Below are positions 7,706 through 22,667 of a DNA stretch of 32,000 bases, piece by piece. The DNA comes from Bifidobacterium longum subsp. longum JCM 1217. Its GTDB lineage: Bacteria; Actinomycetota; Actinomycetes; Actinomycetales; Bifidobacteriaceae. The stretch is taken from assembly GCF_000196555.1 (NCBI RefSeq), contig NC_015067.1, positions 510,001 through 542,000 on the forward strand, read 5' to 3'. The position numbers and the translations under genes are program-made. The stretch's first letter is position 1. Each line of letters starts with the position of its first letter. Under the pieces are notes generated by a model that was not told the origin of the DNA, did no database searches, and saw only the letters and a list, made by a program, of their open reading frames with translations.

Positions 7706-8338
7706 TCAAGCCTGTTTTTCGGTGAACTGGAAGAACTGGTCTCCGATACGCACCGTGGCAGGCGCGCTGAGCTTGAGCGGTGTGCCCTTGGTGACTTGTG
7801 TCTCTTGGCCATTGGTGATGATGTAGGTGCCGTTCAACGAGCCGTAGTCCTCGATCCACAGCGCGCCATCGGTGTCGATGCTGATGGCGGCATGGTTGCG
7901 GGATGTGGTGCGGGTCGGGTCTACGATACGCACCGCCTTGGCACCCTGCGGCACATCCATGGAAGGCTTGCGGCCCAGCAACGTGCTCTTATCGATCACG
8001 ATGGTCTGGCCGGTGACATCGTTATGCAGCAGGTACGTCTTCTTCGGTGCCTTGGACGTGAACGAGGAGGAGAGCACGGTGCTGTCCCAATCCTCGATGT
8101 CGTTTTCGGCGGCGTGCGGTGTGGTGTCTGCCGGAGCGGTGGCAGCGGGCTCAGCGGCGGCGGCCGTGGCGGCAGGCTCTGCGGTAAAAGCGGTATTGGT
8201 TGCCGCTTCCGCGGTACTGGGCTGCCCGTAGTCGTTCTGCGGTTCGGCTGTGCCAACTGCGGAATCCGGGGTGCCTTCCACCGGATCGTCAGAATACCAA
8301 CCCAGTTCAGGTGCTGGAGGGTAGGGAAGTTTGGCCAT
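7706..8338 (-). CDS. FHA domain-containing protein: disordered Ala/Pro/Thr-rich N-terminus plus C-terminal FHA
   Basis: The C-terminal half reads LLGRKPS...RTTSRNHAAISIDTDGALWIEDYGSLNGTYI, i.e. the canonical FHA G-R, S-x-x-H and N-G signature. An AAGGA RBS lies about 10 nt upstream of the ATG at 8338. Stop TGA (complement of 7706-7708). Confidence 0.9.
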   Translation of the reverse strand: MAKLPYPPAPELGWYSDDPVEGTPDSAVGTAEPQNDYGQPSTAEAATNTAFTAEPAATAAAAEPAATAPADTTPHAAENDIEDWDSTVLSSSFTSKAPKKTYLLHNDVTGQTIVIDKSTLLGRKPSMDVPQGAKAVRIVDPTRTTSRNHAAISIDTDGALWIEDYGSLNGTYIITNGQETQVTKGTPLKLSAPATVRIGDQFFQFTEKQA

Positions 8339-8353
8339 GATGATGCCGTCCTT

Positions 8354-8869
8354 TCACTGACGGGAAGCCAGAGCGGCGTTGATTGCCGGGTCGCCGAGCT
8401 GGCCCAGCCATTCGATCAGTGCCGGATAGGTGTTGGGATTACGTGCGATGCAGGCGCGTAGTTCAGGCGCGTACTGGGCAATCTGGGCGATTTGCATCTG
8501 GTCGGTGGTGGTCAGGGCCTGTTCGGCGGTGAAACCGTAAGGATTGGTGGCCACAGGCTCCTCGAATGCCGCCTGAGCCGCGGGCTGCTGAGCCTGTTCG
8601 GCGGCGGGCTGCTGGGCCGCCTGTGCCGTGGCTTTCTGATCCTGAACCGGGCCGCCGAATGCCTCGGCAGTGAACCCGTATTGCGCCAGGGTCTCGCGGG
8701 CGCGACCGTCACCGAACTCGGCGATCCAACGCTTCAAGCCGGGATAACAGCGCGGATTCACGGCGACATTGGCACCGAATTCCGGATTCTCGTAGGCGAT
8801 TTTTGCCAGCAGAATCGGATCCGCGTTCGGATCCTGAACGGCAGCGACCGCAGCATCATAATCAACCAT
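8354..8869 (-). CDS. Hypothetical protein with two copies of a ~45-aa helical repeat (leucine-rich-repeat-variant-like) joined by a Gln/Ala-rich linker
   Basis: Internal duplication is visible by eye. DPILLAKIAYENPEFGANVAVNPRCYPGLKRWIAEFGD matches DQMQIAQIAQYAPELRACIARNPNTYPALIEWLGQLGD, and YGFTAEAF matches YGFTAEQA. A strong AAGGAGG RBS lies 7 nt upstream of the ATG at 8869. Confidence 0.75.
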   Translation of the reverse strand: MVDYDAAVAAVQDPNADPILLAKIAYENPEFGANVAVNPRCYPGLKRWIAEFGDGRARETLAQYGFTAEAFGGPVQDQKATAQAAQQPAAEQAQQPAAQAAFEEPVATNPYGFTAEQALTTTDQMQIAQIAQYAPELRACIARNPNTYPALIEWLGQLGDPAINAALASRQ

Positions 8870-8895: not shown

Positions 8896-9828
8896 TTATG
8901 CCGAACGTATGGTCCGTAGTGTTTGTAGTGTTGCGTCTTCAATGGCGCCGATATCCTCACCTTCGTCCAGCCTGAATGCGCTGAACGCATGATGTTCGGG
9001 TTCGGTCAATGGCATATCGGCCACAATCACAGTGATATTGTCGGTTCCGCCCGCATCAAGAGCGGCCGCCACCAAGGCGTCCACGGCCTCCTGCGGACTG
9101 GAATGCGCCGCGGCGATGGCCGCGATCTGTTCGTCCGGCACCTCGCCATGCAATCCATCCGAACAGATGATGAAGCGGCCGGTCAGATCGGCGACATATA
9201 CGTCGGGCATGATGCCATCCGGATCACCCAGACATTGGGTGATGATGTTGCGTGGAATGGTCGCCTCCGCCTCTTCCGGCAACATCTGCCCGGAATCGAT
9301 GGCTTCTTGGCGCTGGGAATGGTCTCGCGTGATGCGGGTCAGCGAAGCGGCGTCCCACACGGGAATGATATCCGTGGCGGGAGCATCGGCATGCGCCAAC
9401 GGACTGAGATGGTAGGTGCGGGAATCGCCGACATTGACCACATAGGTCTGGTCCGAGAAGTCCTGATCATCGGCGTCACTGAACAAAGCAGCGCTGCGGG
9501 CGCTGGCGGAATCCGCATGATCTTGGGGCAGTACCAAACCGGAGCAGGTTGTGCCGGCCACGCCGCCAAGGCGGTCTCCCAGATCGAGAATGTCGTGCTG
9601 GGCCCGTGCCAAGGTGTCGTCGATATCCTGACGGGTGCGTGAAGGCATGGCGGCCAATTGTGCGAAATGCTGGGCAGCCAACTGGCTTGCCTGCTCGCCG
9701 CCTTTGCCGCCGCCCATGCCGTCACAGACCATGAACACGCCTTGTTGCGCGAATCCGGTGTCTTGGTTGTTTTTGCGCCTAAGACCCACGTCACTGGTCA
9801 TCGCGATACGGATGGAGCCTGTGGTCAT
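8896..9828 (-). CDS. PP2C-family Ser/Thr protein phosphatase (cytoplasmic, no TM segment)
   Basis: PP2C motifs are present: SDVGLRRKNNQD, FMVCDGMGGGKGGEQAS, ICSDGL and GGTDNITVIV. The start ATG overlaps the upstream gene's stop as ATGA (9825-9828). Confidence 0.92.
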   Translation of the reverse strand: MTTGSIRIAMTSDVGLRRKNNQDTGFAQQGVFMVCDGMGGGKGGEQASQLAAQHFAQLAAMPSRTRQDIDDTLARAQHDILDLGDRLGGVAGTTCSGLVLPQDHADSASARSAALFSDADDQDFSDQTYVVNVGDSRTYHLSPLAHADAPATDIIPVWDAASLTRITRDHSQRQEAIDSGQMLPEEAEATIPRNIITQCLGDPDGIMPDVYVADLTGRFIICSDGLHGEVPDEQIAAIAAAHSSPQEAVDALVAAALDAGGTDNITVIVADMPLTEPEHHAFSAFRLDEGEDIGAIEDATLQTLRTIRSA

Positions 9829-12338
9829 GACGCCTTCCCCTTCTTACGCGTGCGCTTGACATGCGTCGTGTGCGGCTTTGCTGCGTGCCCATTTGACAGT
9901 ATAGCCACGCTTTTCAGGGAAAGTCGTGTACGTATCCTCCTGAAACGCGGCAAAGAAGCGAGCATTGCCTTGCGTAATTGGTCGACTCCTGTCCAATATG
10001 TGGTGGCTTGGCCCGATTCAATGTCTTGCCCCGAGAACGTGGCGTAGTCGGCTTCCCGGCCAAGCTGGATCAAAGCCTGGTCATCTGTGCCGAGTTGACG
10101 GGCGATGGCACCGGCCTGATCTCGACGAGTGCCCTTGGCTGTGATGCCGCTTTGCTCGGCAAGCATGCGTATGGCATTCCAACCTGCTGCCACACGGGTT
10201 TTCGGACTGCCGTGTCGCCGCGCTCGTGCCAGCAGTATGGCCTTGAACATCAGAATCAGACCGCAGGCGATGAGTAGGGTCCACAATGGGCTGCCGTACA
10301 GGGCCACCTTGCGGGTCACTCGCCAGAACCGCGCCCAGAACAGGTTGGTCGGCGAATCATCGGCGTCGGCGCCGGCCAATGAGCTTTGGCCCTTGGCTTG
10401 CGTCTGATCGCGCAGCGGATCGGTCAACGGCACTGGTGGTTGCCGGACCAGCGTCTGCGGATTCGGCGGCGTCAGGTTCTGGTTTTCATCAGGCATCTTG
10501 GTCTCCTTGGGCGTCGGATAGAACGCCACCCATCCCAGGCCCTGCAATTTGATTTCCACCCAAGCGGTGACATCGTTGCCGGTGAATTCGATTTTGGTGC
10601 CATTGCCTGAGGTCTTCTCCGTGCGGGCATCGGTGATTTCGCCATCCTCGTTTTTCGGCAGGAAGCCCAGGACCACACGGGAGGGCAGTCCCAGATCACG
10701 AGCCATCAGTGCCATGGCGGAGGCATATTGCTCGGAGTCGCCCACCATGGCCGTGCCTGCCAGCAGCTTGTTGATGCGGTAGTTGCCATGGCCGGCATCG
10801 GAGGGATAGTCGCCTTCAAGTCCATGAGAGAACCATCCGGAGTCTTTCAATGTGTCGGCCAACGCCGTGGCTGCGGCACCGCCCGAGGACTGCCCGCCGG
10901 CAATGGACGTGGCCAGTTTGCTGGCCGAATCGGGAACATCCTGGGCTTCTGGTTGGGTGATGCGGGCCGCAGCCGCACTGCTGATCTGCTTATCGGTGGG
11001 ATTACGGGCGATAATGCCGGATTCGGTATAGGTGAGGCCTTTACGCGTGCCGGCGGGAATAATGGCGGAATCGGTATCCGTGTTGTAGTAAAACGTGTCA
11101 TTGCCGTTGTCGGCATCGTTGGCGAAGCTCACGCCAGTGGCCGCTCCCGCCAGCGGCAGCCAGGTGTCGGTCAGTCCCTGATCGACGGTGAAGGTCGCAG
11201 TGAAGGATTTACCCTGCTCATCCGCCTTGATCGTGGTGCCCACGCGATGATAATTCGAGGAGTCCGTGGCTTCGGAAGAATCGGACAGGTTCCATACTGT
11301 GCCATCGAATCGATCCATCACCGCAAGTTTGACCGGTGTTCCGGCCGGCAGATTATGAACGGTCAGCAACACGTCTTTTTTGTGGTCCTTGATATAGGAT
11401 CGCATGCCGCTGAGCGGGCTGGTGTAATCGTAGGGGCTTAACGGCGGATCGTAGCGGTCACGCAGCACGAAACGGTCCTGTGGCACCAGCAACGTGCCCC
11501 CGAAAGCAAGGCCGGCAGCGAGCACGACGATGATCAGCGCGGATATCCAGCGCCCCCATTCCAGCAGTTCAAGACGCCAAGACAGCCAGATAATCAGCAG
11601 CAAGGCAAAGGCAATACCGCAGATGGCGCGTTGCCAGCCGCTGTCTGTGCCCAGCAGGGCACATACGGCCACGGCCGCCGCAAGGGGCAGCACTCCCACC
11701 AGAGACAACCATGCGTTGGCATTAATGGCAAACACGCCGGTGAAGAACGTAAGCCACAGGCCGATGGTCCATACCGCCATCAGCACGCCGTCTTGCGTGC
11801 CCAGAGGCGGATCGACGGAAATAATGTACTTGAACGAGCCAAACGTCATTTCCCAACCTGAACTCAAGGTCTTCAAGGTGGGAATCACGTAATGGGACGT
11901 AGTGGAACTCAGCGTTACCACCGGGCCGATGATGAATTGGGCAAACGCCAGAAACACGATTTGCCACCACAGTCGCAACGCCGGCAACATGCCCGCCAGA
12001 GCGATGATCGCGCCCAGCAAGGTGGCCGGTACAGCGGCAATCGCCCAAGTGGCCACGCCGCCGTACACGTCGATGAGATTGGCTTGCGCCAGCAACATCA
12101 TCGCCGCTATGAGTACGAGGCTGGCGATTCGTTTGCCCCACGGCTGGCGACTGAGGCCCATGCCGCGAAGCACATTGCCTCTGGTCATCCAGATAACCGA
12201 ATGTGTGGAGTCGGCCCAGGAGCCGGTGGTGGTGGAGGTCCCGGTGTACGTGCCGGAGGAAGTGCCGGTGTATGTGCCGCTCGATCCGGCGTACGCAGCG
12301 GTATTGGTATTGGTGATACTGGACTGGTCGAAGGTCAT
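9825..12338 (-). CDS. Transglutaminase-fold polytopic membrane protein (TgpA/YebA-like architecture, DUF4129-like C-terminal tail); catalytic triad apparently substituted
   Basis: 837 aa. The order is a Thr/Ser-rich N-terminal tail, about 6 hydrophobic helices and a large soluble domain with the transglutaminase-core signature GDSEQYASAMALMARDLGLPSRVVLGF...VTAWVEIKLQGLGWVAFYPTP. A further TM helix and a basic cytoplasmic tail follow. The start overlaps the DUF58 stop as ATGA (12335-12338). Confidence 0.85.
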   Translation of the reverse strand: MTFDQSSITNTNTAAYAGSSGTYTGTSSGTYTGTSTTTGSWADSTHSVIWMTRGNVLRGMGLSRQPWGKRIASLVLIAAMMLLAQANLIDVYGGVATWAIAAVPATLLGAIIALAGMLPALRLWWQIVFLAFAQFIIGPVVTLSSTTSHYVIPTLKTLSSGWEMTFGSFKYIISVDPPLGTQDGVLMAVWTIGLWLTFFTGVFAINANAWLSLVGVLPLAAAVAVCALLGTDSGWQRAICGIAFALLLIIWLSWRLELLEWGRWISALIIVVLAAGLAFGGTLLVPQDRFVLRDRYDPPLSPYDYTSPLSGMRSYIKDHKKDVLLTVHNLPAGTPVKLAVMDRFDGTVWNLSDSSEATDSSNYHRVGTTIKADEQGKSFTATFTVDQGLTDTWLPLAGAATGVSFANDADNGNDTFYYNTDTDSAIIPAGTRKGLTYTESGIIARNPTDKQISSAAAARITQPEAQDVPDSASKLATSIAGGQSSGGAAATALADTLKDSGWFSHGLEGDYPSDAGHGNYRINKLLAGTAMVGDSEQYASAMALMARDLGLPSRVVLGFLPKNEDGEITDARTEKTSGNGTKIEFTGNDVTAWVEIKLQGLGWVAFYPTPKETKMPDENQNLTPPNPQTLVRQPPVPLTDPLRDQTQAKGQSSLAGADADDSPTNLFWARFWRVTRKVALYGSPLWTLLIACGLILMFKAILLARARRHGSPKTRVAAGWNAIRMLAEQSGITAKGTRRDQAGAIARQLGTDDQALIQLGREADYATFSGQDIESGQATTYWTGVDQLRKAMLASLPRFRRIRTRLSLKSVAILSNGHAAKPHTTHVKRTRKKGKAS
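12237..12284 (-). repeat. 2 x 24-bp in-frame tandem repeat encoding SSGTYTGT SSGTYTGT
   Basis: The N-terminus reads ...AYAG SSGTYTGT SSGTYTGT STTTGSW. About half of the first 41 residues are Ser/Thr. Confidence 0.8.
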
Positions 12339-13558
12339 GCGAGCACCCCCATGATCAGCGGGAGATCATCGAGGTCGCCGATGGTGGCCAATGTGAAGTT
12401 GGCGAATCTTCTGATGCCGCGATTGGCGCCGGCGCTGGCCTGCAATACCACGCAGCTGGCCGATCGGGGCAAGGCCAAGGTCATGCGCTTGATTTGCTCG
12501 ATGTCTTTCAGCGATCCAACAGTGAAAAAATAGAACGAAGCATCAGGACTGTGCTTCAGCGTGCCCTCGGCGAGATTCGGATTATCCTCACGATCAGGCT
12601 CTATGGCACTGGCGTTGTCGAGGAACTCCATGGCGTTGCGCGGCTGGCCGTGCGCGTTGCCCGCGTGGCAGAACAATGGACGATCCTGCAGCAGGCATTT
12701 GACGCCGATGGAGGAGTGGATGGACACCGCCATCTCGAATTCCTCGCCGTTGACGTATTCGTCCGGGTTCACGCTGATGGTCACCGAGGTGTCGGTGCGG
12801 CGCGTGGCCTCATATTGGCGAATCATCAACGTGCCGGTTTTCGCGGAGCTCAGCCAGTGGACGTTACGCACGTCGTCGCCCGGCTCGTATTCGCGCAATC
12901 CGTAGAAGTCGAGATCATCATCCACGATCTGGCCGGATGGTTGGCCTTCCAGGTCGCGGGGCACGCCGGCATTCAGAGTATCGAGACGCACGGTACGAGG
13001 GTGGATGAATACGGTGATGCGGTCGGCCAGCTCCTTTTCGTGACGCACCAGACCGAACGGGTCTCCCTTGCGGATGCGCAATGGGCCGATGGGCAGTATT
13101 GCGCGCGATACGGTACGGAACTCCACATCGGTTTGCTTGGATTGCCCGGGAGCCAGCATGGGGATGTTGAATCGTTCATGCGCATCGCCGATTGGCAGAT
13201 ATCCGCGTGCCGTGGTCGTCGGCGTTCTGCCGGTGTTGTCGATGCCGACGATAACGGATACGGTGTCTCCCACGGTCACGCGATGATTGGATACGACGAT
13301 GGACGCGTGGAAGCGTGTGTTGCCGAGGGAAAGCACGATTGCCGCGAGCATCATCACCATCGCCACGATGCCGAATACGAGCAGCTCATACCAGCCCAGA
13401 AACGGGAACGCAATAAGGCATGCGATGCCTGCGCCCGTTACCGCCCAGCCCAAGGGCGAGACGTAGGATGCGAAGAACCGTCTGATGCGTCTTACCGCGC
13501 GCTTGAACATGCGTTCAGCGCGCCGGCGACGGCGTAATGCGGCGGATGTAGATGCCAT
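12335..13558 (-). CDS. DUF58 domain-containing protein (vWA-like MoxR partner) with two N-terminal TM helices
   Basis: DUF58 signature DFYGLREYEPGDDVRNVHWLSSAKTGTLMIRQYE. The N-terminus is Arg-rich, followed by two hydrophobic helices. A GGAAAGG RBS lies upstream of the ATG at 13558. Confidence 0.9.
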   Translation of the reverse strand: MASTSAALRRRRRAERMFKRAVRRIRRFFASYVSPLGWAVTGAGIACLIAFPFLGWYELLVFGIVAMVMMLAAIVLSLGNTRFHASIVVSNHRVTVGDTVSVIVGIDNTGRTPTTTARGYLPIGDAHERFNIPMLAPGQSKQTDVEFRTVSRAILPIGPLRIRKGDPFGLVRHEKELADRITVFIHPRTVRLDTLNAGVPRDLEGQPSGQIVDDDLDFYGLREYEPGDDVRNVHWLSSAKTGTLMIRQYEATRRTDTSVTISVNPDEYVNGEEFEMAVSIHSSIGVKCLLQDRPLFCHAGNAHGQPRNAMEFLDNASAIEPDREDNPNLAEGTLKHSPDASFYFFTVGSLKDIEQIKRMTLALPRSASCVVLQASAGANRGIRRFANFTLATIGDLDDLPLIMGVLA

Positions 13559-13582: not shown

Positions 13583-14956
13583 TCAGGAACCGATGGTGGG
13601 GGAGGGAACGTCTTCGAGCACCTGTGCGATCAGGCTTTCCGGAGTCGCGCCATCGAAGGTGGCTTCCGGAGTCAGCGTGATACGGTGTGCGAGCACGGCC
13701 ACTGCAAGGTCCTTGACGTCATCCGGCACCACGTAGGCACGGCCATCGGCCGCGGCCCAGATACGGGCGCATCGGGTCAGTGCCAAAGCGCCACGCATGG
13801 AGGAGCCGACCGTGATCTTCTCGTTGTGGCGGGTCGCCTCGACGAGCCTGACGATGTATTCACGAATCGCATTATCCACATAGATTTCGGTGGCCACCTG
13901 ACGCAGCCGCATGACATCGTCACCGCTCAGCACCGGGGAAATGGTCTGCGCACGGTCGGTGATATCGACCTGCTTGAGGATATCGACGGACACATCATGG
14001 CCCGGGTAGCCGATTGACGTCTTGATAAGGAATCGGTCCATCTGCGCCTCAGGCAGCTTATAGGTACCGAGCTGCTCGATGGGGTTCTGGGTTGCAATCA
14101 CGATAAACGGCTGCGGCACATCATGTGTGACGCCGTCAACGGTGACTTTCTGCTCTTCCATAACCTCCAGAAGTGCGGACTGCGTCTTCGGCGATGCACG
14201 GTTGATCTCATCGGCCAGCACGATGGAGGCGAAAATCGGGCCTTCGCGGAACTCAAATTCTCCGCGCTTCTGATCGTAGAAAGTCACACCCACCACATCC
14301 GAAGGCAGCAGATCGGGCGTGAACTGAACACGCTTGAAACCGGTGGAAATGGAATTGGCCAAGCCTCGGGCCAACTGGGTCTTACCGGTGCCGGGGTTGT
14401 CTTCAAGCAGAATATGGCCACCGACCATCAGTGCGGTGACGCATTGCTTGATAGGGATGGTCTTGCCGATAACCACCTTGGAGACATTTTCGACCAGCGC
14501 ATTGAAGGACTGCTGGAAATCCCGGACCTGAGCCGTGGGCTGGGGCAGTAGTCCGGAATTGATGCTGGCGGGCAGTGCCGATGCGGCTGCTTGCGCGGCT
14601 TTGCTCGACTGACGCTGCGGCTGTGATTGCGGCTGGGATTGCGCGGTGGCCTGCTGCGGGATGGCTGGCGTCGATCCCTTGCGCGGCTTGAGCACGGTGC
14701 TGTCATCGCCCGCAGGAATGGAGGCGGCATCAGTAGTAGGAGACGGCTTTTCTGACGGCGCTTGTGACGGCCGCTGCGGCAGGTTAGGCAGCGCAACGGA
14801 CTGCGGCGCCGACTCGGTGCTTGGGGTCGTGCCGGTGTGTGGTGCGGATGCCAGGTGCGTGGCGTCGGACAAGTGCGTGCTGTCGGATAGCTGCGTGCTG
14901 TCGGACAGACGGGTCGTGTCAGACAACTGCGTCGCGTCATCGATGTTCTCGCTCAT
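13583..14956 (-). CDS. MoxR-family AAA+ ATPase with a ~170-aa low-complexity Ser/Thr/Gln/Pro-rich N-terminal extension
   Basis: Walker A LLEDNPGTGKTQLA and Walker B IVLADEINRASPKTQSALLEVMEE, with MoxR-like context throughout. I place the start at ATG 14956 (MSENIDD...), not the track's 15298. A GGAGAA RBS lies 6 nt upstream, and this ATG is 10 nt past the upstream gene's stop. The longer ORF would overlap that gene by about 330 nt. Confidence 0.9.
   Translation of the reverse strand: MSENIDDATQLSDTTRLSDSTQLSDSTHLSDATHLASAPHTGTTPSTESAPQSVALPNLPQRPSQAPSEKPSPTTDAASIPAGDDSTVLKPRKGSTPAIPQQATAQSQPQSQPQRQSSKAAQAAASALPASINSGLLPQPTAQVRDFQQSFNALVENVSKVVIGKTIPIKQCVTALMVGGHILLEDNPGTGKTQLARGLANSISTGFKRVQFTPDLLPSDVVGVTFYDQKRGEFEFREGPIFASIVLADEINRASPKTQSALLEVMEEQKVTVDGVTHDVPQPFIVIATQNPIEQLGTYKLPEAQMDRFLIKTSIGYPGHDVSVDILKQVDITDRAQTISPVLSGDDVMRLRQVATEIYVDNAIREYIVRLVEATRHNEKITVGSSMRGALALTRCARIWAAADGRAYVVPDDVKDLAVAVLAHRITLTPEATFDGATPESLIAQVLEDVPSPTIGS
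14846..14935 (-). repeat. 5 x 18-bp in-frame tandem repeat encoding the hexapeptides ATQLSD TTRLSD STQLSD STHLSD ATHLAS
   Basis: The repeat is visible in the DNA (tgtcggacaagtgcgtgc / tgtcggatagctgcgtgc / tgtcggacagacgggtcg ...) and in residues 8-37 of the MoxR protein. Confidence 0.85.
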
Positions 14957-14966
14957 GGATGTTCTC

Positions 14967-17900
14967 CTACTGCTTGTGAATGGTGGTTGACGATATTGGG
15001 GTATTGCCGAAACCAAGAATCCAGGGGTTCTTGGCCAAAGTGGTGACATCGGTACCGGATTTGAGCGACTTGGTCCCCTCCGAGGAGTCAGAGGGACGTG
15101 TGCCCGCGACGCTGCCTCCGTCCGCAGTGTTGTCGAGACCGGAGTATCCCGGCCCGCCGGTGACTTTGACGCTCCACGCGTAGTTGCCATCGGCGGCCAC
15201 GGCCAAGTCGGTGACATCCAATGGCTGGCCGGAGTTCCACGTGAACGGTTGGCCATTGATGATGATTTGTACAGTGGCCGACTTGCCATAGACATCAACC
15301 GAACCGCCGGTGACGTTAATGACGTGAGCGTTGTCTGACCAGCGCAGCTCCTGCGGTTTGTTGATTACAGCCTTCTTCTCATAGGTGTAAGGAGCGCCAT
15401 TGTGCGGGCCTCCGGTGACGGCGTCGCTGGTAGCGCCGTTGAACACCTGTTGCACCGATGCGGTGTTGCATTTGGCCCAAGGACTCATTCGGAAGTCGAG
15501 TGAGTTCCGGTTAGTAGCTGTACCGGAATCGATGCCATCGGCAGTCACGCTGTAGGACTGCGCATGTCCCTGCTTGGTCCAATGCACGGTGCATGTACTG
15601 CCGGATCCGGTGGTGTAGACGTCAGTGGGCGGCTGGACCTTGTACTGCGGGACAAAGCTGCTCTTGCCCGTGCCGGAGGAAGCATCGCGCTGCGGCACCA
15701 CGGTGGCCGTTACGGTGATTTCCCGGGTGTTCAAATCGTTCTCATTGATATCGAACGTAGCGCCACTGTCACTGCAATCGATGGTGTCCTTGACGTCTCC
15801 TCCCAAGGAAATTCGCCGGCAGCCGGCATTGCGGTTATTGCCGAGAGTGACTTTCGCCGTTACCGTGGTGTCGTCGTTCGACAACGCAATGTTCGGCGCA
15901 TCCGGGTCTCCCCAGATCTTCTCTGACGGCGATGCGGCGGACTCGGCACTCCAATTGATTTTGTTATGGGCTTTGACGGTCGCCGTAATGGCGGTGCCAT
16001 CGGAAATGTCGTTGTTGTTGAACGTAAACGACAGCTCGGTGGCCGTATTGCCGGTTTCCTTGGTCTGCGGAGCACCTGCACCGGTGACGGTCACTGAATA
16101 GTTGTCGACGGCGCTGAAATCACCGCTCGGCGCTTTCCACGTCACCCTGGCGGTTTTATTGCCACCTGTGATCGTAACATCGGTGGGAGCGGACGGCACC
16201 TTGTCCGGTGTGGCTTCGACGGCGGTGGACGGCTTGGACCAGCCGACGTCATTTCGCGCGGCGACGGTGAAGGAATAGGTTTTGCCGTTCTTCAGACCAG
16301 TGACCTGGCATGAGGTGACGGCACCGCAATCCTTCTCTCCGGTGACGGCACCGGTCCAACTGACCTTGTAGTTGGTGATCGGGCTGCCATTGGCGGCACC
16401 GGGCGTCCATGTGAGGCTGACCGCGCTGTCCTGCGGTTCCCCGGCTACGGGGGAGAGCAGTGGCGGCTCGGGCTTGTCGATCACGGACACGGTAATCGAT
16501 GCGGTGACTTCACGATCCTTGGACTTGGTGCCGTCTTGCACGGTGACGAGCACGGTGTTCGTGGAAGCACCTACATCGGATGCGACGGCGATGGTGATGT
16601 TTCCGGAGGCATCGCATCCGGCGATGGTGAGTTTGGCGGCGTCATCCGCCTTGCAGCTGATGACGGTCAGCGAGGAATCGGGGAACGGATTGTACGCGCC
16701 GGTAAGCACGTTCACGGCATCGCTGGCACCGGCCTTGATCTTCAACGTCTTGTCGCCGACGCGTGTCAGCGGACGGGTCGAAGACACTACGCGCACGGTC
16801 ACACCGGCATTCACGGTGCCCGCGCCGTATGCGATTTGCACGGGAACGGACGCGGTGGTGCCAGGAGCGGCATCCTTGGTGGCGGAAACCTGCAAGCTAC
16901 CGGAACGGGACAGGTTTGCGGTGATTTGCCTGGATGATGAGCTTCCACCGGAATACGTGTATTGCTTTTCGTCGTCATACACGCCGGACGGTGCATGGGT
17001 GAGCGCCGTCAGATCAACGGTCTTGGGGTCCGCGCCCGCCTCGACATCAATAGTGGAGGACGAGAACGTGGGCGGCGGCACATCGCGGCCTATCACCGTG
17101 ATCTGGAGAGTGATCACTGCGGAATTGATGATCTTGGTCTTATCCGATCCCTGCTTGCCATCCACAGCGGTAAAGGTAATGGAGGCGGGGCCTGCGTAGT
17201 CTTTTGCCGCAGTGAACTTCAGGGTCTTGTCGTTCACGTAGAAATCGGAGTTGGAAGCCTTGGTGGCGCTGACGGAATCAGCGCTTTCGATATACGGTTC
17301 CTTGCCGGCGCCGACGCGGACATAGTCATTGATGTTGATTTCAATGGTCTCGCGCGAGTTGACCTTCAATTCCGGTGCCTTGGGACGCAGCGTGGGCGGA
17401 AAGACACCATAGGCCGGTACCTGGATGAACGCGGTGGAGGTGATGTTGTATTTCGTATTGGTCACCGTGTAAGGCACGGCTCGCGCCTGTGACGTCAGGT
17501 CGACGGTGATGGTGGTCGAATGCTCGCCGCCCTTGACGTGAGCGTGAGCGCTGGCGGAGGGATGCACGCCGACCTTGAGCTCATTGGCTGTGCCGGAAGG
17601 ATTGGCGATCCACTGGGAAACATCCACATCCACGGACTTCTTATCGATGGTGGCGGCGGACGGCACACGATAGTCGTAGGCGGTAGGCGGCTCGATGGCG
17701 GCACTCGGATCCACGTTTACCGTGAGGGTGGCCGTATCGGACAAGCCGGCCTTGTCTTTGACCGTGTAGGCGATATAGTCGGTGGTGGCGCTGTCGGGCG
17801 TGGTGAAGGAGAGCATATTGTCTTTCACGCTCACCCCGTCGAGACCTTGGACCTCGACATGCTTGTCGACGGTCAGATTGGTGTTGTCGCCGGAGATGTC

Positions 17901-20900
17901 GTTCTGCGCGACCGGCACGGTTGCGGCCGTATTGGGCCTCAACGTGATTTCGTCATCCCTGGCGTATACGCCGGAGTCGGACGATCCTTGGAATACGCCC
18001 ACGCGGATCTGCGCCTGTGCGCGCTGACCGGTCCAATCCTCCACGGCATAGGAGAAGGTGTCGGTGCCGGACGAATCCGGATACGCTTCATAGACCAAGT
18101 AGTCGGAACCGACTTCGGATATGCGGCCCAGCGTGGGTGCCTTGTTGCCCAGACCCAACAGCTGATTGTCGTCGCCATCCGTGTCTATGCCGGTCAGTGT
18201 GATGGGGATGCGGACCTTCTGCCCGGCGGCAACCTGCGCTTCGGCGTCATGCGGGGTTGGCGCGGCCTTGCTCGCTGCGTCGCTCTTATGCACGGTAATG
18301 GTGATATTGGCGGAAGCCACATTACCCAGATTGTCTTCAACCGTATAGGTGATGGGGAAGTTGCCGGTCTCGCTGGATGCTTGGTAGCGGACCGTGTCTC
18401 CAGAGACGAAGGCCAGACCCTTGAACGTCCCCTTGTCGTATTGCAGGTTGTTCTTGAGTTTGACCGTGGTGCCATCCGAGTAGGCCACATGGTCAAGCAC
18501 ATCCACGGACACGATGCCGTCGGTACGCACCTGGGCATTGATATTGCTGGCCTTGGGCACTGAATTCGAGGTGGCCAGAGCCGGCGGCTGCAACACGATG
18601 GTGCCCTTGGCGGTTCCGGAGGCGTTGGCCACGGTGTAGGTAAGGGCGACGGGCTTCGTGGGCACCTGACGCGCGGTGATATACACGCGCTTATGGCTGA
18701 CGAGACCAACCTTGATGCCGGAGTCGGCCGGTGCGCTCACCGTGGTGACGGACAGCACACCGCCCATCGGATCGACGTCATTGGTGAGCGGCTCCACAAT
18801 GGCGGTATTATCCGCGCCAAGCAGGGCGACATCGTTGGCGGCAACCGGTTTGGCGGCCTCGCCGGTGGCGGGCTGCACCTCGACTCGAGCCAATCCGGTG
18901 GCCGGAATCGAACCTTGAGTAATGATGTAGGGCACATAATAGGTGCCGGGATTGGTGGCCTTGAACGTCAACGACATATCCGCCGCATTGGTGGTCGTCG
19001 AAGCGCCGTTGGGCGTATCCACCTGAGTCAGTTGTGCCGGCTGCAAGGAAGTGCCATGCACATAAGAGGACAGCTTGACGACGGTATCCGTGTTGGGAAC
19101 GGTGGTTTTCGCTACCGGGTCGATGACCGCGGCCAAGGTGTTCGCGGGCTTGACCGAGAAATACACCATGCCGGTGCCGGTTGCCGTGCCGTCGGAGACG
19201 GTGACCTCGACGCCCACACGTCCCGACGCCAGCGCACCGGTGTTGAACGTAAGCTGGCCGTCGGCTCGGGTGGACACCTGCACCTGGTCGGTGTTCTGGG
19301 CCACAGCGGAGACCAGAGTGAGCGGGTCTCCATCCGGATCGTTGAAGCTGCTCAGCGCATTGGCGGTATAACTGGCTCCCTGCTCCACATCGATCTCGGG
19401 AGGAGTGTCGAACTGTACGGGAGCGTGGTTGCCTCCATCATTCAGGGTTACGGTCACCGTGGCGGAAGAGGTCTGGCCGCGACCATCGGAAATATCGTAA
19501 GTAAAGGTAACGGTGCCTGCGGATGCGGCGGAGGCATCGAGTTGCAGATACCGGCCGTCGTAAATCGGCGAAATGGTGACGTCTTTGTTGTTTGGTGCGC
19601 CAACCTTGGTGATTTTCAGTACGGAACAATCGGTCTGCTCGTCATTGCGCAGCGCGTCGAGAATCTGTTCCGAACCGGCTCGTGCGCCGATTTCATCATC
19701 CTCGGCTTTGATTTGGCCGGATTGTGCGGAACAGGTCTTGGAGAAGTCGTGGTGGTTGTTGGCCGAGTCGTTGTTCTGCTGTTCTTTCTCGGTCTGCTCG
19801 GTCTGTATTTTGTTCCACTGTATTTTGATGACTTTGGTGGAATCCTCAGGGTTCCACACATTGCCGTTAACCGTGTCGTTGAGCACCACAAGGCGATGGT
19901 TGGTGCGGAACACCAATTCGGAAGTAGTATTGACGGATTCGAGGGTTTGCGGCTTGACGCTGGTATCCGTGGGGGAGCAGGCGCGAATGTAGTTGCTGGC
20001 CTTCTGGCTCCAAGCCGAGTACACGCAGCCCTTGGACGATACCGGTCGTGCCGGATTCGCCTTGCCCCCGTTGGCTATGAAATTCGCCTTGGCATTGGAC
20101 TTCAACGGGATAAGCGCAAGGCCTCTCGGTGATGCCGCGGCCACCCAATCGGACTGTATGTCATCGGTGGGAGGCTCCTGAAGGGTGAGGGTGCCGGTCG
20201 TGTCGACATCGACGCGGCCGCCCTTGAATATGACGGTTTTGCCGGTTGCGATTACCGGCGTGCTCCCGATGACGGTAAAGCTTTCAACGGTCTGCTGCTT
20301 GCCGTCGGTCAGCGATTCGAGGGTTTTGACGTTGGCGCTGCTGGGATTGTCAAGACGCAGCACCATACCGTCGGATGGACGGTATCCGTAGACTTTGCCA
20401 TCGTGGGTTACTGCGATGCGCCCGCCCTCGCCCAGCTTTATTTTCGGATCGGAAGTGGTGGGGGTCACGGAATCAAGGTTTTCCGACAAGCCGGTCCACA
20501 CATTGCCGGTCTTCTCGTTGATCAGGGCTGCGGTATCCCCGCCGACCACAGTGGTGGTGCTGGCTTTGATGTCGGTCTTGACACCGGTGCTGACCGTGGA
20601 TGCCTTGATGGTGGAGGCTTTGGTCGTTTCGGTCAGGATGGTGTCGCCATTATGCTGTGCGATGTCGAATCGTGGGGCGGAGGAGGAGACGCCGGCGTCG
20701 GCCTCCTTGTTCTTTACGTTGAATCGTGCGGCCTTCTGGTTTTTCAGCGAAGTGACCCATACGGTGCCATCGTCCAGTTGCACATGGCGGCGCGTGACGG
20801 TGCTCATGATCACCGCGCCGGCAACAAGTCCCAGAAGCAGCAGGAGCGTGATTACGGGAACCGTCCACGTATGCCCTCCGGAGGGCATAAGGCGGCGCAA

Positions 20901-20951
20901 AGCCGCGCTGATGCGTCGGCGACGATCGTATGACTGGGACGATGTGGCCAT
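14967..20951 (-). CDS. Giant (1994 aa) N-terminally membrane-anchored surface protein with a beta-rich head, ~11 cadherin/Ig-like repeats and 4-5 fibronectin type III modules
   Basis: A short Arg-rich cytoplasmic tail precedes one TM helix (WTVPVITLLLLLGLVAGAVIMSTV, about 20796-20867). About 350 aa of beta-rich sequence follow. Then come ~95-aa repeats with cadherin-like acidic motifs (FNDPDGDPLTLVS, LTNDVDPMGGVLSV, GIDTDGDDNQLL), each ending in ...TVTV/ITV. Next are Fn3 modules (SLTWTPGAANGSPITNYKVSW...GKTYSFTVAARNDVGWS; ARVTWKAPSG...YSVTV). No LPXTG motif is present. A GGGAG RBS lies 5 nt upstream of the ATG at 20951. Confidence 0.88.
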   Translation of the reverse strand: MATSSQSYDRRRRISAALRRLMPSGGHTWTVPVITLLLLLGLVAGAVIMSTVTRRHVQLDDGTVWVTSLKNQKAARFNVKNKEADAGVSSSAPRFDIAQHNGDTILTETTKASTIKASTVSTGVKTDIKASTTTVVGGDTAALINEKTGNVWTGLSENLDSVTPTTSDPKIKLGEGGRIAVTHDGKVYGYRPSDGMVLRLDNPSSANVKTLESLTDGKQQTVESFTVIGSTPVIATGKTVIFKGGRVDVDTTGTLTLQEPPTDDIQSDWVAAASPRGLALIPLKSNAKANFIANGGKANPARPVSSKGCVYSAWSQKASNYIRACSPTDTSVKPQTLESVNTTSELVFRTNHRLVVLNDTVNGNVWNPEDSTKVIKIQWNKIQTEQTEKEQQNNDSANNHHDFSKTCSAQSGQIKAEDDEIGARAGSEQILDALRNDEQTDCSVLKITKVGAPNNKDVTISPIYDGRYLQLDASAASAGTVTFTYDISDGRGQTSSATVTVTLNDGGNHAPVQFDTPPEIDVEQGASYTANALSSFNDPDGDPLTLVSAVAQNTDQVQVSTRADGQLTFNTGALASGRVGVEVTVSDGTATGTGMVYFSVKPANTLAAVIDPVAKTTVPNTDTVVKLSSYVHGTSLQPAQLTQVDTPNGASTTTNAADMSLTFKATNPGTYYVPYIITQGSIPATGLARVEVQPATGEAAKPVAANDVALLGADNTAIVEPLTNDVDPMGGVLSVTTVSAPADSGIKVGLVSHKRVYITARQVPTKPVALTYTVANASGTAKGTIVLQPPALATSNSVPKASNINAQVRTDGIVSVDVLDHVAYSDGTTVKLKNNLQYDKGTFKGLAFVSGDTVRYQASSETGNFPITYTVEDNLGNVASANITITVHKSDAASKAAPTPHDAEAQVAAGQKVRIPITLTGIDTDGDDNQLLGLGNKAPTLGRISEVGSDYLVYEAYPDSSGTDTFSYAVEDWTGQRAQAQIRVGVFQGSSDSGVYARDDEITLRPNTAATVPVAQNDISGDNTNLTVDKHVEVQGLDGVSVKDNMLSFTTPDSATTDYIAYTVKDKAGLSDTATLTVNVDPSAAIEPPTAYDYRVPSAATIDKKSVDVDVSQWIANPSGTANELKVGVHPSASAHAHVKGGEHSTTITVDLTSQARAVPYTVTNTKYNITSTAFIQVPAYGVFPPTLRPKAPELKVNSRETIEININDYVRVGAGKEPYIESADSVSATKASNSDFYVNDKTLKFTAAKDYAGPASITFTAVDGKQGSDKTKIINSAVITLQITVIGRDVPPPTFSSSTIDVEAGADPKTVDLTALTHAPSGVYDDEKQYTYSGGSSSSRQITANLSRSGSLQVSATKDAAPGTTASVPVQIAYGAGTVNAGVTVRVVSSTRPLTRVGDKTLKIKAGASDAVNVLTGAYNPFPDSSLTVISCKADDAAKLTIAGCDASGNITIAVASDVGASTNTVLVTVQDGTKSKDREVTASITVSVIDKPEPPLLSPVAGEPQDSAVSLTWTPGAANGSPITNYKVSWTGAVTGEKDCGAVTSCQVTGLKNGKTYSFTVAARNDVGWSKPSTAVEATPDKVPSAPTDVTITGGNKTARVTWKAPSGDFSAVDNYSVTVTGAGAPQTKETGNTATELSFTFNNNDISDGTAITATVKAHNKINWSAESAASPSEKIWGDPDAPNIALSNDDTTVTAKVTLGNNRNAGCRRISLGGDVKDTIDCSDSGATFDINENDLNTREITVTATVVPQRDASSGTGKSSFVPQYKVQPPTDVYTTGSGSTCTVHWTKQGHAQSYSVTADGIDSGTATNRNSLDFRMSPWAKCNTASVQQVFNGATSDAVTGGPHNGAPYTYEKKAVINKPQELRWSDNAHVINVTGGSVDVYGKSATVQIIINGQPFTWNSGQPLDVTDLAVAADGNYAWSVKVTGGPGYSGLDNTADGGSVAGTRPSDSSEGTKSLKSGTDVTTLAKNPWILGFGNTPISSTTIHKQ

Positions 20952-21117: not shown

Positions 21118-22539
21118 TCATTCTTGCGGCTTGGCCGCACAGGCGATGGCGGGGCTGACGGACATCTGGCGGTTCTTGCGCACAATGGACACCTGAATGC
21201 AGGTCTGCGAGCCTTCCTGCGCGTTGACGGTCACCGTGGGATCTGACGTTGTGACGGTTTGCGCGCTCTGGTCGGTATTGCTGCCCTGCACTATGGCCCA
21301 CGCATAGGTATCACCGCTTTGCGGGTCTGGATTCGTCCAGGTGAACGTCACGGATGACCCATCCGCCGCATAGGTGCCGTTCAGATTCTCCGGGGAAGGA
21401 ATCTGGGCGTTCGCGGTATCGGTGATCACGTCATCCTGATTATTGCGGTTGTTGTCATCATCCTTGGTGCCGGGCGTCGCCACCTGTTTGGTATCTGATC
21501 CGGTGGCGCTGTCCATGCGGGGAACGACCACGAAGGCGAATATCAGTGCCGCTGCGGTGATCGCCGCAAGTATACCGACGGTAATACCCACCGGTTTGAC
21601 CCATCGCCGTGACGAACGGGTGATCTGATCTCGCTGGTCCGTGGCCCGGCGCCGACGCTCGATGTCTTTGGGATAGGCCGGCATCCCTTCCACGGTAACG
21701 GGAGTGGCATGCCCGAAATATGCGAATTGCACACGCTGCATGGCACGTGCGAACTCCAACGCGGAGTAGTACCGCTGGTCGGGGTCCTTGTTCAGGGCCC
21801 GGCGCAGCACCGCTTCCACATCGGCCGGCACGTCGGGGCGGTTGAGGCGAGGCAATGGCTGGTTGACGATCAGCGAAATCAGTTCCGATTGCGAACGCGG
21901 GTGATAATCGTGCTGGAATGGCGAGCAGCCGACGAACATGGCGTACAGGGTGGCCGCCAGTGAATAGATGTCGGCGGCTTCCGAACCATTGGTCAGATGC
22001 TGAAGCACTTCAGGCGGTGCCCACGGCGGCGAGAATCCGGTTTCGGTACGGTCATACACATCGGTGGAGATACCGAAATCACCCAGAACAGGCAAGCCCT
22101 GCGAGGTGATGAGAATGTTGCTGGGCTTGATGTCGTGATGGATGATATTGCTGCGATGCGCGGTGAACAGCGCGCTTGACAGCTTGATGCCGAGGTCGAG
22201 TACCTGCTCGCAGGTCATGGACCGGGCCTTCATGATGCTGTTGTAGGTGCCGCCCGGCGCATATTCGATGACGATGTAGCCATGGCCATCGGAGGTGACG
22301 CCGGCACCATATACCGGCAGAATGTACGGGTGGGATGACAGCTTGGCCATGAAGTTGGCCTCGCGGTTGAACAGGGCAGCGGCCCGTGGGTCAAGGGTTT
22401 TGGCGCTGGCCTTTACCGCCACCGGGCGTGCGGGCATACGCTGGTTATATAGGTACACCGTGGCGGTGGCACCGCTTCCCAACATCTGGACGAAATCATA
22501 TCCGGGCAGCTTCGGCGGTCTCATCGGAATGTTGTCCAT
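21118..22539 (-). CDS. Hanks-type Ser/Thr protein kinase, single-pass membrane protein with an extracellular Fn3-like domain
   Basis: Kinase motifs are present: LGSGATATVY, VAVKA, IIHHDIKPSNILI, DFGIS and WAPPE. The TM helix is VGITVGILAAITAAALIFAFVVV. The C-terminal ectodomain reads SVTFTWTNPDPQSGDTYAWAIV...CIQVSIV. I prefer the start at ATG 22539 (MDNIPMRPP...) because AAGGAGGGAGGG lies just upstream; the track's 22578 start has no RBS. Confidence 0.9.
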   Translation of the reverse strand: MDNIPMRPPKLPGYDFVQMLGSGATATVYLYNQRMPARPVAVKASAKTLDPRAAALFNREANFMAKLSSHPYILPVYGAGVTSDGHGYIVIEYAPGGTYNSIMKARSMTCEQVLDLGIKLSSALFTAHRSNIIHHDIKPSNILITSQGLPVLGDFGISTDVYDRTETGFSPPWAPPEVLQHLTNGSEAADIYSLAATLYAMFVGCSPFQHDYHPRSQSELISLIVNQPLPRLNRPDVPADVEAVLRRALNKDPDQRYYSALEFARAMQRVQFAYFGHATPVTVEGMPAYPKDIERRRRATDQRDQITRSSRRWVKPVGITVGILAAITAAALIFAFVVVPRMDSATGSDTKQVATPGTKDDDNNRNNQDDVITDTANAQIPSPENLNGTYAADGSSVTFTWTNPDPQSGDTYAWAIVQGSNTDQSAQTVTTSDPTVTVNAQEGSQTCIQVSIVRKNRQMSVSPAIACAAKPQE

Positions 22540-22667
22540 CTGTTCCCTCCCTCCTTGGAAAATGCGCTCTCCCTGCATTCGTTCTACAGGATACCGTCAA
22601 GGGTACGATTCTTCGTCGGGTTCGGTAAAATTTTTCCCTCTGTGACGGTCGGGTTTAGGCTGGAGCC
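22540..22667. promoter_or_regulatory. Divergent intergenic region expected to hold promoters for the kinase operon (-) and the helicase-nuclease pair (+)
   Basis: This is a 128-nt gap between divergent starts. There is a TAAAAT -10-like hexamer at 22626-22631 (+ strand, 37 nt before the ATG at 22668). There is a TTGACG -35-like hexamer on the - strand (complement of 22595-22600). Neither has a convincing partner hexamer. Confidence 0.3.

Follow-up and report, generated by a model that had tools for sequence, protein, structure and literature searches.

What does a transglutaminase-like domain do when it has no catalytic cysteine? The question is raised by tgm, a gene of Bifidobacterium longum subsp. 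longum JCM 1217 that belongs to the cluster known as PFNA and lies in a 32,000-nucleotide stretch of contig NC_015067.1 (positions 510,001 to 542,000; this whole stretch is hereafter the window, to which all coordinates refer). Tgm has been called a putative transglutaminase, "presumably a cysteine protease" (PMC6803598, PMC8430577), and an earlier inspection of the DNA letters (the sequence-only reading) had proposed that Ser, Thr and Tyr stand in place of its whole Cys-His-Asp catalytic triad. The analysis described here bears out that replacement, finds the nucleophilic cysteine absent from an entire clade of relatives, and suggests that the Tgm ectodomain is probably an ancient pseudoenzyme, serving as the non-catalytic binding module of a conserved machine with the giant surface protein FN3, a MoxR-family ATPase and a DUF58 protein. 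The parts of Tgm are as follows.

9825..12338, minus strand: tgm (open reading frame with a PF01841 match), a TgpA/YebA-type polytopic membrane protein of 837 amino acids with a transglutaminase-like ectodomain predicted to be catalytically dead
12141-12338, minus strand: Thr/Ser/Gly-rich tail, residues 1-66, predicted to be cytoplasmic and preceding the helix bundle
11475..12140, minus strand: N-terminal bundle of seven hydrophobic helices, residues ~67-288 (hydropathy scan; AlphaFold2 helices)
10344..11474, minus strand: predicted ectodomain, residues 289-665, an N-terminal beta-sandwich followed by the transglutaminase-like core (AlphaFold2; Foldseek)
10515..10919, minus strand: Transglut_core match, residues 474-608 (Pfam PF01841)
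10734..10736, minus strand: Ser535 codon (TCC), catalytic Cys column (phmmer, family profile, MAFFT)
10566..10568, minus strand: Thr591 codon, catalytic His column (phmmer, family profile)
10518..10520, minus strand: Tyr607 codon, catalytic Asp column (phmmer, family profile)
10215..10289, minus strand: eighth transmembrane helix, residues 684-708 (hydropathy scan; AlphaFold2)
9828-10214, minus strand: helical C-terminal domain, residues 709-837, predicted to be cytoplasmic, Arg/Lys-rich at its start (hydropathy scan; AlphaFold2)

The Transglut_core profile (PF01841) matches Tgm at E=9.8e-17 and 61.6 bits (cut-off 23) over profile positions 2-108 of 108, and a search of NCBIfam with Tgm returned no family. 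Three comparisons fix the catalytic columns. In a phmmer search of the PDB, the Tgm segments GDSEQYA, DVTAWVE and GWVAFYPT were aligned with GFCAHYA, DAHAWVE and GWLSVDPT of Pseudomonas aeruginosa TgpA (6g49), in a match that is itself marginal at E=0.77; with a profile built from 49 family sequences the same register against 6g49 was obtained at E=9.5e-10, and seven Cys-bearing homologues aligned to Tgm with MAFFT fall into it as well. The columns that had been assigned by eye thus hold against both the profile hidden Markov model and TgpA, and the codon positions given for them were exact, so that Ser535, Thr591 and Tyr607 are confirmed, by alignment, as the occupants of the Cys, His and Asp columns and the triad is absent from Tgm. 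The G-x-C-E-Q-F-A pattern used in that reading is likewise real, occurring as GYCEQFA in the nearest active relatives. That the register is wrong and a genuine Cys-His-Asp triad lies elsewhere in Tgm has practically no probability left, since the three independent alignments agree and the soluble domain contains zero Cys; nothing was found in favour of a misplaced register or of a true triad elsewhere in the protein.

The triad columns of Tgm lie 56 and 16 residues apart, as had been read from the sequence, and those of TgpA 44 and 16, so that the second gap is indeed that of TgpA. The first is 56 rather than 44 because of an extra 12-15 residues (TDARTEKTSGNGTK; residues ~569-583, 10590-10634 on the minus strand) in the hairpin that joins the Cys helix to the His strand, an insertion found in only about 45 of 142 relatives, Bifidobacterium representatives among them. 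An AlphaFold model of residues 289-665, built from a more diverse alignment, reached a mean predicted local distance difference test (pLDDT) of 85.8 and a predicted template modelling score (pTM) of 0.83, and its top Foldseek match in the PDB was the TgpA periplasmic domain (6g4h/6g49; E=7e-15, template modelling score 0.68 on the target, 324 columns), followed by 3isr, TG2, TglA and PeiP. An earlier full-length model (pLDDT 67) gave the same Foldseek answer with lower confidence. The predicted structure therefore agrees with the proposed transglutaminase fold. In the AlphaFold model the helices of the bundle span residues 67-88, 95-115, 124-147, 185-204, 209-229, 236-255 and 262-284; TgpA_N (PF11992, DUF3488) has no match in Tgm at E<=1 and is present in many orthologues of 52-72% identity, and DUF4129 (PF13559), found in relatives at the C-terminal domain, is absent from Tgm's own Pfam matches. 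At least 1000 contigs carry the identical Tgm sequence, and the named members of its cluster are B. longum.

The three cysteines of Tgm (226, 240 and 692) each lie within a transmembrane helix according to the hydropathy scan, leaving the soluble domain without an alternative thiol. Judged by its residues, Tgm cannot carry out thiol-based transamidation, proteolysis or deamidation.

The loss extends far beyond B. longum. A HMMER search of 1.84 billion cluster representatives returned 4682 homologues, of which the best 150 were taken (down to 31% identity, E=7e-67); 142 of these cover the transglutaminase core, and all column counts rest on these 142. Cys is found at the nucleophile column in none of the 142 representatives among the best 150 of 4682 homologues; the column is occupied by Ser (52), Asp (35), Ala (21), Glu (14), Gly (12), Gln (7) and His (1). 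The His column holds mainly Thr (40), Glu (21), His (19), Ser (15), Ala (14) and Gln (14), and the Asp column Asp (53), Tyr (32), Phe (23), His (15), Arg (6) and Asn (5), giving entropies of 2.3-3.1 bits at the three catalytic columns amid near-invariant motifs. Around them, G533, R521, E536, Q537, R554, W603 and P610 are invariant (142/142), W593 (141/142) and H517 and E595 (140/142 each) nearly so, and position 534 is Asp or Asn in every relative. Named examples read Asp-His-Asp in Sinomonas and Psychromicrobium and Glu-Thr-Asp in Blastococcus.

The same result was obtained from genomes and metagenomes. No Cys stands at the nucleophile column in any of 80 related genome loci, and a scan of 241 million metagenome records for exact DNA encoding MVGDCEQYA gave 0 matches, with at least 114 for MVGDxEQYA, where x was S, D, A, E, G or Q; in one scan, more than 580 genome stretches encoded relatives of Tgm. 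By these counts, the triad loss is clade-wide across the Actinomycetota relatives surveyed. Variable catalytic columns in an invariant frame, throughout the phylum, are what one would expect if a pseudoenzyme had retained its cleft in order to bind, and the pseudoenzyme proposed in the sequence-only reading gains support from this pattern together with the clade-wide absence of Cys.

Serine is the commonest residue at the Cys column (52/142) and is found in 120 of 121 Bifidobacterium rows, the remaining row being a fragment, which raises the question of whether Ser535 simply replaces the Cys nucleophile, so that Tgm still has enzyme activity, as a peptidase or acyltransferase of the serine type with a papain-like fold. 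Transglutaminase-like domains with Ser for Cys have been suggested to be active, the proposed precedents being SERA and some CCDC135 or menin-like domains (PMC3495828). For Tgm such a mechanism is very unlikely, because both the general base and the acid are missing and orthologues carry residues that cannot act. The His column holds Thr here and varies among T, E, A, S and D in the genus, the acid column holds Tyr (with a few His or Arg in the genus), and at position 535 the orthologues encoded in this operon elsewhere have Ala, Gly, Asp, Glu or Gln, the divergent Bifidobacterium representatives B. avesanii (Gly) and B. hapali (Asp) among them; as Ala and Gly cannot be nucleophiles, a Ser-based mechanism cannot be the conserved function. 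Of the three substitutions, whose fixation among orthologues had been left to be surveyed, only Ser is thus nearly fixed in Bifidobacterium; Tyr is mostly kept, and the Thr column is variable.

When the cysteine was lost can be approached through relatives that retain it. Searching a protein database with a 66-residue TgpA fragment yielded short fragments only and no full-length active homologues, and the Cys-bearing homologues were gathered instead from plasmid tblastn matches and from a search in which a Cys-less protein of Streptomycetaceae was the query. Relatives with Cys-His-Asp/Glu include proteins of Listeria (in a MoxR-DUF58-TgpA operon), Kineococcus, Rubrobacter, Rathayibacter, Cryobacterium and Halobacterium. 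A further Cys-bearing group reads Cys-His-Glu (GYCEQFA...HAWPE...FEPTP) and comprises the nearest active relatives of the Cys-less clade, whose own members fall into a GDxEQYA type (Bifidobacteriales, Micrococcales, Actinomycetales, Propionibacteriales) and a GT[S/P/A]EQFA type (Streptomycetaceae, Nonomuraea, Frankia and others). In a simple neighbour-joining distance tree of 56 sequences and 645 columns, the Cys-less proteins were monophyletic in 96 of 100 bootstraps and sister to the GYCEQFA-type group in 85 of 100. A single loss of the catalytic Cys, in the ancestor of an Actinomycetota-wide clade, is therefore well supported by the tree, although not proven. When 24 Cys-bearing proteins are compared with 32 Cys-less ones, only the Cys, the His and one Gly are columns of at least 90% conservation in the Cys-bearing set that the Cys-less set has lost, while G533, R547, P552, R554, G558, W593, E595, G602 and W603 are conserved in both.

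All three GYCEQFA-type loci checked, on metagenome contigs (L205, L207 and L208), are three-gene MoxR-DUF58-TgpA operons with no fn3 gene. In each, a divergent ROK gene lies upstream and a DUF3040 gene downstream. L207 alone also adjoins mraZ, rsmH and a penicillin-binding protein gene, part of the cell-division and cell-wall (dcw) cluster, and this position hints that the ancestral active system acts on the cell envelope.

The same comparison bears on whether the old cleft has been rebuilt as a new active or metal-binding site around H517, R521, D534, E536, Q537 and E595, making Tgm a neo-enzyme or a metal sensor. The near-complete conservation of H517, R521, E536 and Q537 and the Asp or Asn at 534 would fit such a site, as would the finding that H517 and E536 are present in at least 94% of Cys-less proteins and in 21-38% of Cys-bearing ones; MoxR-vWA systems elsewhere, for example NorQD, mature metal centres. 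The proposal is nonetheless rather unlikely, since PGHG and C-E-Q-[FY]-A are already found in the nearest active relatives (P0386-P0388, P0395, P0396), which makes H517, E536 and Q537 inherited cleft or structural residues rather than innovations, and since column 535 ranges from Gly to Glu. PGH (ending at residue 517) with E536-Q537 had been considered as a dead-clade innovation marking a new site, and was rejected once PGHG and GYCEQFA were seen in the nearest Cys-bearing relatives.

At the other extreme, the ectodomain might be a functionless relic, with only the membrane and cytoplasmic parts mattering, for example as an anchor for DUF58 and MoxR. All three catalytic residues are gone, and positive selection has been reported in the transmembrane region rather than in the domain (PMC6803598). 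A relic is quite unlikely, however, as the transglutaminase-like core is, throughout the phylum, the most conserved part of Tgm (invariant residues are concentrated at 501-610, against an overall mean column identity of 27%), no frameshifts or truncations occur in the loci examined, and the fold is predicted with confidence.

If the domain is kept for binding, its gene neighbourhood may suggest the ligand. This locus is itself the PFNA cluster known from B. longum: its eight genes follow the published order, pkb2-fn3-aaa_atp-duf58-tgm-prpC-hyp-fha (PMC6803598, PMC8430577), and it is flanked by rpoB/rpoC and by an AdnAB-like helicase-nuclease pair. Besides tgm, its genes are the following.

7706..8338, minus strand: fha, FHA-domain protein (PF00498, E=4e-9)
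8354..8869, minus strand: LRV_2 (leucine-rich repeat variant) protein, the seventh PFNA gene ("hypothetical"; PF25591, two matches, E=9e-40)
8896..9828, minus strand: prpC, PP2C-type phosphatase, its start overlapping the tgm stop (weak Pfam match of 20.4 bits, cut-off 20.3; gene order)
12335..13558, minus strand: duf58, membrane-anchored vWA-like protein, its stop overlapping the tgm start (PF01882; two N-terminal hydrophobic helices)
13583..14956, minus strand: aaa-atp, MoxR-family AAA+ ATPase (AAA_3, E=1e-63; AAA_lid_2)
14967..20951, minus strand: fn3, giant surface protein of 1994 amino acids (six Big_9, cadherin-like and two fn3 matches)
21118..22578, minus strand: pkb2, Ser/Thr kinase with one transmembrane helix (327-358) and an extracellular tail (Pkinase, E=1e-37)

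FN3 has an Arg-rich N-terminus, a single hydrophobic signal-anchor helix (residues 25-54) and no LPXTG motif, features that fit a signal-anchored surface protein with a large external part. What the seventh gene does is given as unknown in the cluster papers. The MoxR gene probably starts at the ATG at 14956, 11 nucleotides after the fn3 stop and behind a GGAG ribosome-binding site; the PFNA ATPase has been reported in the literature as a Pkb2 substrate. The MoxR protein carries an N-terminal extension of about 180 amino acids (14400-14956, minus strand) that is rich in Ser, Thr, Pro and Gln, with TQLSD/TRLSD/THLSD repeats before AAA_3, and these repeats are plausible Pkb2 phosphorylation or FHA-docking sites. 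In Tgm itself, residues ~10-40 of the N-terminal tail (12220-12310, minus strand) are rich in Thr, Ser and Gly (GTYTGTSSGTYTGTSTTTG) and lead into a conserved SWADSTHSVIW motif; as the locus also holds Ser/Thr kinase, PP2C phosphatase and FHA genes, the tail is a possible candidate for a phospho-threonine switch. At the flank of the cluster, the UvrD-helicase/PD-(D/E)XK nuclease open reading frames (AdnA/AdnB-like; 22668-26981 and 26774-31009, plus strand) overlap by about 200 nucleotides as listed, and the second probably starts downstream of its listed GTG.

The association of tgm with fn3 extends well beyond the bifidobacteria. Gene order was counted in the related genome loci that have 5 kb or more of flanking DNA upstream, and fn3, moxR, duf58 and tgm follow one another in that order on one strand in 73/73. 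Besides Bifidobacterium, these loci include those of Cellulomonas, Actinotalea, Sanguibacter, Jonesia, Georgenia, Arthrobacter, Microbacterium, Leifsonia, Cryobacterium and a propionibacterium (Propionibacteriaceae), and their FN3 proteins are 30-40% identical to B. longum FN3 over 660-1150 residues. In Actinomyces oris (L198), an Ig-like giant protein is followed by MoxR, DUF58 and the transglutaminase-like protein in the same order, with kinase and FHA genes nearby, and FHA, PP2C and kinase genes often lie near the non-bifidobacterial cores (L048-L078, L198) in differing positions. Three divergent Cys-less loci, of Nonomuraea, Embleya and Streptomycetaceae, have upstream a gene for an fn3-domain protein of 700-850 amino acids. 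No fn3 gene was found beside Cys-bearing relatives at the loci examined; with fn3 beside every Cys-less locus examined and beside no active one, the loss of the triad and the acquisition of fn3 coincide. The sequence-only reading had suggested a binding or scaffolding role, perhaps for the giant surface protein, and the invariant gene order lends that link comparative support; physical binding of FN3 by Tgm, like the coupling to MoxR and DUF58, is what we infer from synteny and shared compartment. Bifidobacterium-like PFNA loci with 56-63% identity to Tgm also appear in records labelled Dysosmobacter segnis (L004) and Senegalimassilia sp. (L026), which are probably contaminated metagenome bins.

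Binding of this kind requires a domain that faces outward. The transglutaminase-like domain of Tgm comes after seven hydrophobic helices and before an eighth, with Arg/Lys-rich segments before helix 1 and after helix 8; an odd number of helices, the positive-inside rule and the precedent of TgpA, whose domain was placed outside the cytoplasm by PhoA and shaving data (PMC3507681), together predict that the domain of Tgm lies outside the cytoplasmic membrane. As FN3 is signal-anchored with a large external part, it plausibly shares this compartment with the Tgm ectodomain.

On the pseudoenzyme reading, all three triad positions would have drifted after a single loss of the Cys, while strong purifying selection held the scaffold (G533, E536, Q537, R554, W593, E595, W603 and the PTP motif). 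The retained fold would most likely be a non-catalytic peptide- or protein-binding module at the outer face of the membrane, and the co-encoded, membrane-anchored fn3 giant protein would be the prime candidate for its ligand. Through its helix bundle and its cytoplasmic parts at the N- and C-terminus, Tgm may couple this ectodomain to the vWA-like adaptor DUF58 and to MoxR, the AAA+ ATPase, and the Pkb2 kinase, the PrpC phosphatase and the FHA protein could add phospho-regulation.

Several points weigh against this reading. Ser535 is near-fixed in Bifidobacterium and H517, R521, E536 and Q537 are almost or fully invariant, which leaves room for a different chemistry at the old site. What the Streptomycetaceae-type upstream proteins have in common with the FN3 of B. 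longum is limited to the Pfam fn3 domain, and B. longum FN3 had no tblastn match in those loci at E<=1e-4. Finally, Zhang and Aravind predicted a cytoplasmic transglutaminase-like domain for the TgpA/YebA-type family (PMC3495828), a placement that would make contact with the FN3 ectodomain impossible.

Domains of this fold that have lost catalysis are familiar from eukaryotes, where inactive examples in Rad4, Cyk3, CC2D2A and EPB42 have been described as modules for peptide binding or scaffolding (PMC3495828, PMC3386208, PMC10318531). In Rad4/XPC, Cyk3, CC2D2A/MKS6, EPB42 (band 4.2) and FBXO21, as in Tgm, a conserved domain keeps the papain-like fold without its catalytic residues, and these are the features by which transglutaminase-like pseudoenzymes are recognised: Tgm retains the fold, lacks the catalytic residues and has its domain under purifying selection. 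The eukaryotic proteins are soluble or peripheral, whereas Tgm is a bacterial polytopic membrane protein encoded in a MoxR/DUF58 operon. What is new here is a bacterial, membrane-integral, clade-wide pseudoenzyme within the TgpA/YebA family, inactive transglutaminase-like domains as such being familiar; no description of an inactive bacterial TgpA-type clade was found in the literature searched, the coverage of which was incomplete, so that this absence is no proof of novelty.

The closest characterised relative is TgpA (PA2873), whose periplasmic domain is active as a transglutaminase in vitro and whose gene is critical for viability and predicted to be in an operon with PA2875, PA2874 and PA2872 (PMC3507681). 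Tgm resembles it in its predicted layout, with a helix bundle (DUF3488/TgpA_N in TgpA), a beta-sandwich and transglutaminase-like domain, one further transmembrane helix and a C-terminal domain in the cytoplasm, and TgpA (6G49, 6G4H) is both the best structural match and built on the same motif frame. TgpA, however, keeps Cys-His-Asp, whereas Tgm reads Ser/Thr/Tyr, and the giant gene fn3 lies upstream of its gene. Like other TgpA/YebA-type genes, tgm lies directly downstream of MoxR AAA+ and DUF58 genes, as it does in all the loci counted; the operon neighbours PA2875, PA2874 and PA2872 presumably include MoxR and DUF58 genes as well.

MoxR-vWA-YebA operons have been proposed to be degradation machines in which the transglutaminase-like protein is the protease (PMC3495828). 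The same gene triad and the same eight-helix membrane protein are found here, and the Listeria and actinobacterial GYCEQFA-type operons are of this kind. The model needs an active peptidase and assumes a cytoplasmic domain, whereas the Tgm clade has no nucleophile, and for that clade it therefore cannot hold.

Giant adhesins are the targets of the bacterial transglutaminase-like cysteine proteases LapG and DvhG; of these, LapG is soluble and periplasmic, has an active Cys-His-Asp triad and is controlled by LapD and cyclic di-GMP. A protein of this fold is thereby functionally tied to a giant, repeat-rich surface adhesin (PMC13090378). Fold and giant surface protein are common to LapG and Tgm, but LapG has no MoxR/DUF58 partners and is not membrane-integral, and the likeness in fold serves as a lead only.

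A more far-reaching version of the pseudoenzyme reading may be put forward tentatively, as a possibility with the balance against it: that fn3-MoxR-DUF58-Tgm is an ancient, Actinomycetota-wide trans-envelope machine in which Tgm clamps FN3 and MoxR/DUF58 assembles, remodels or releases it. The dead ectodomain would be the outside receptor or clamp for the giant fn3/cadherin-like surface protein, and ATP-driven MoxR with DUF58 would act on FN3 through the helix bundle of Tgm, under the control of Ser/Thr phosphorylation. If true, this would be the first role assigned to the MoxR-DUF58-transglutaminase-like operon, and it would show that the core function of the operon is independent of transglutaminase-like catalysis.

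For the bifidobacteria, the findings correct the current view of a probiotic locus already under study, with Tgm now appearing as a dead enzyme. The cluster papers also call the cluster and FN3 unique to bifidobacteria (PMC6803598, PMC8430577), whereas the fn3-moxR-duf58-tgm core is spread across Actinomycetota; neither the "enzyme" nor the "bifidobacteria-only" statements on Tgm, FN3 and the cluster fit the sequences compared here. As the four-gene core is shared with soil and oral actinobacteria, host-specific interpretations are weakened. The label "transglutaminase-like putative cysteine protease" is applied to proteins of the Cys-less clade, and with so many genome stretches encoding relatives in one scan, such mislabelling is probably widespread. 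The sister clades with and without the triad, Cys-His-Glu on one side and fn3-linked and dead on the other, offer a natural experiment on what the transglutaminase-like cleft recognises. For the family as a whole, the long retention of the system without a nucleophile in a large clade constrains the function of the widespread, uncharacterised MoxR-DUF58-transglutaminase-like operons, and suggests that in this clade the domain works by binding.

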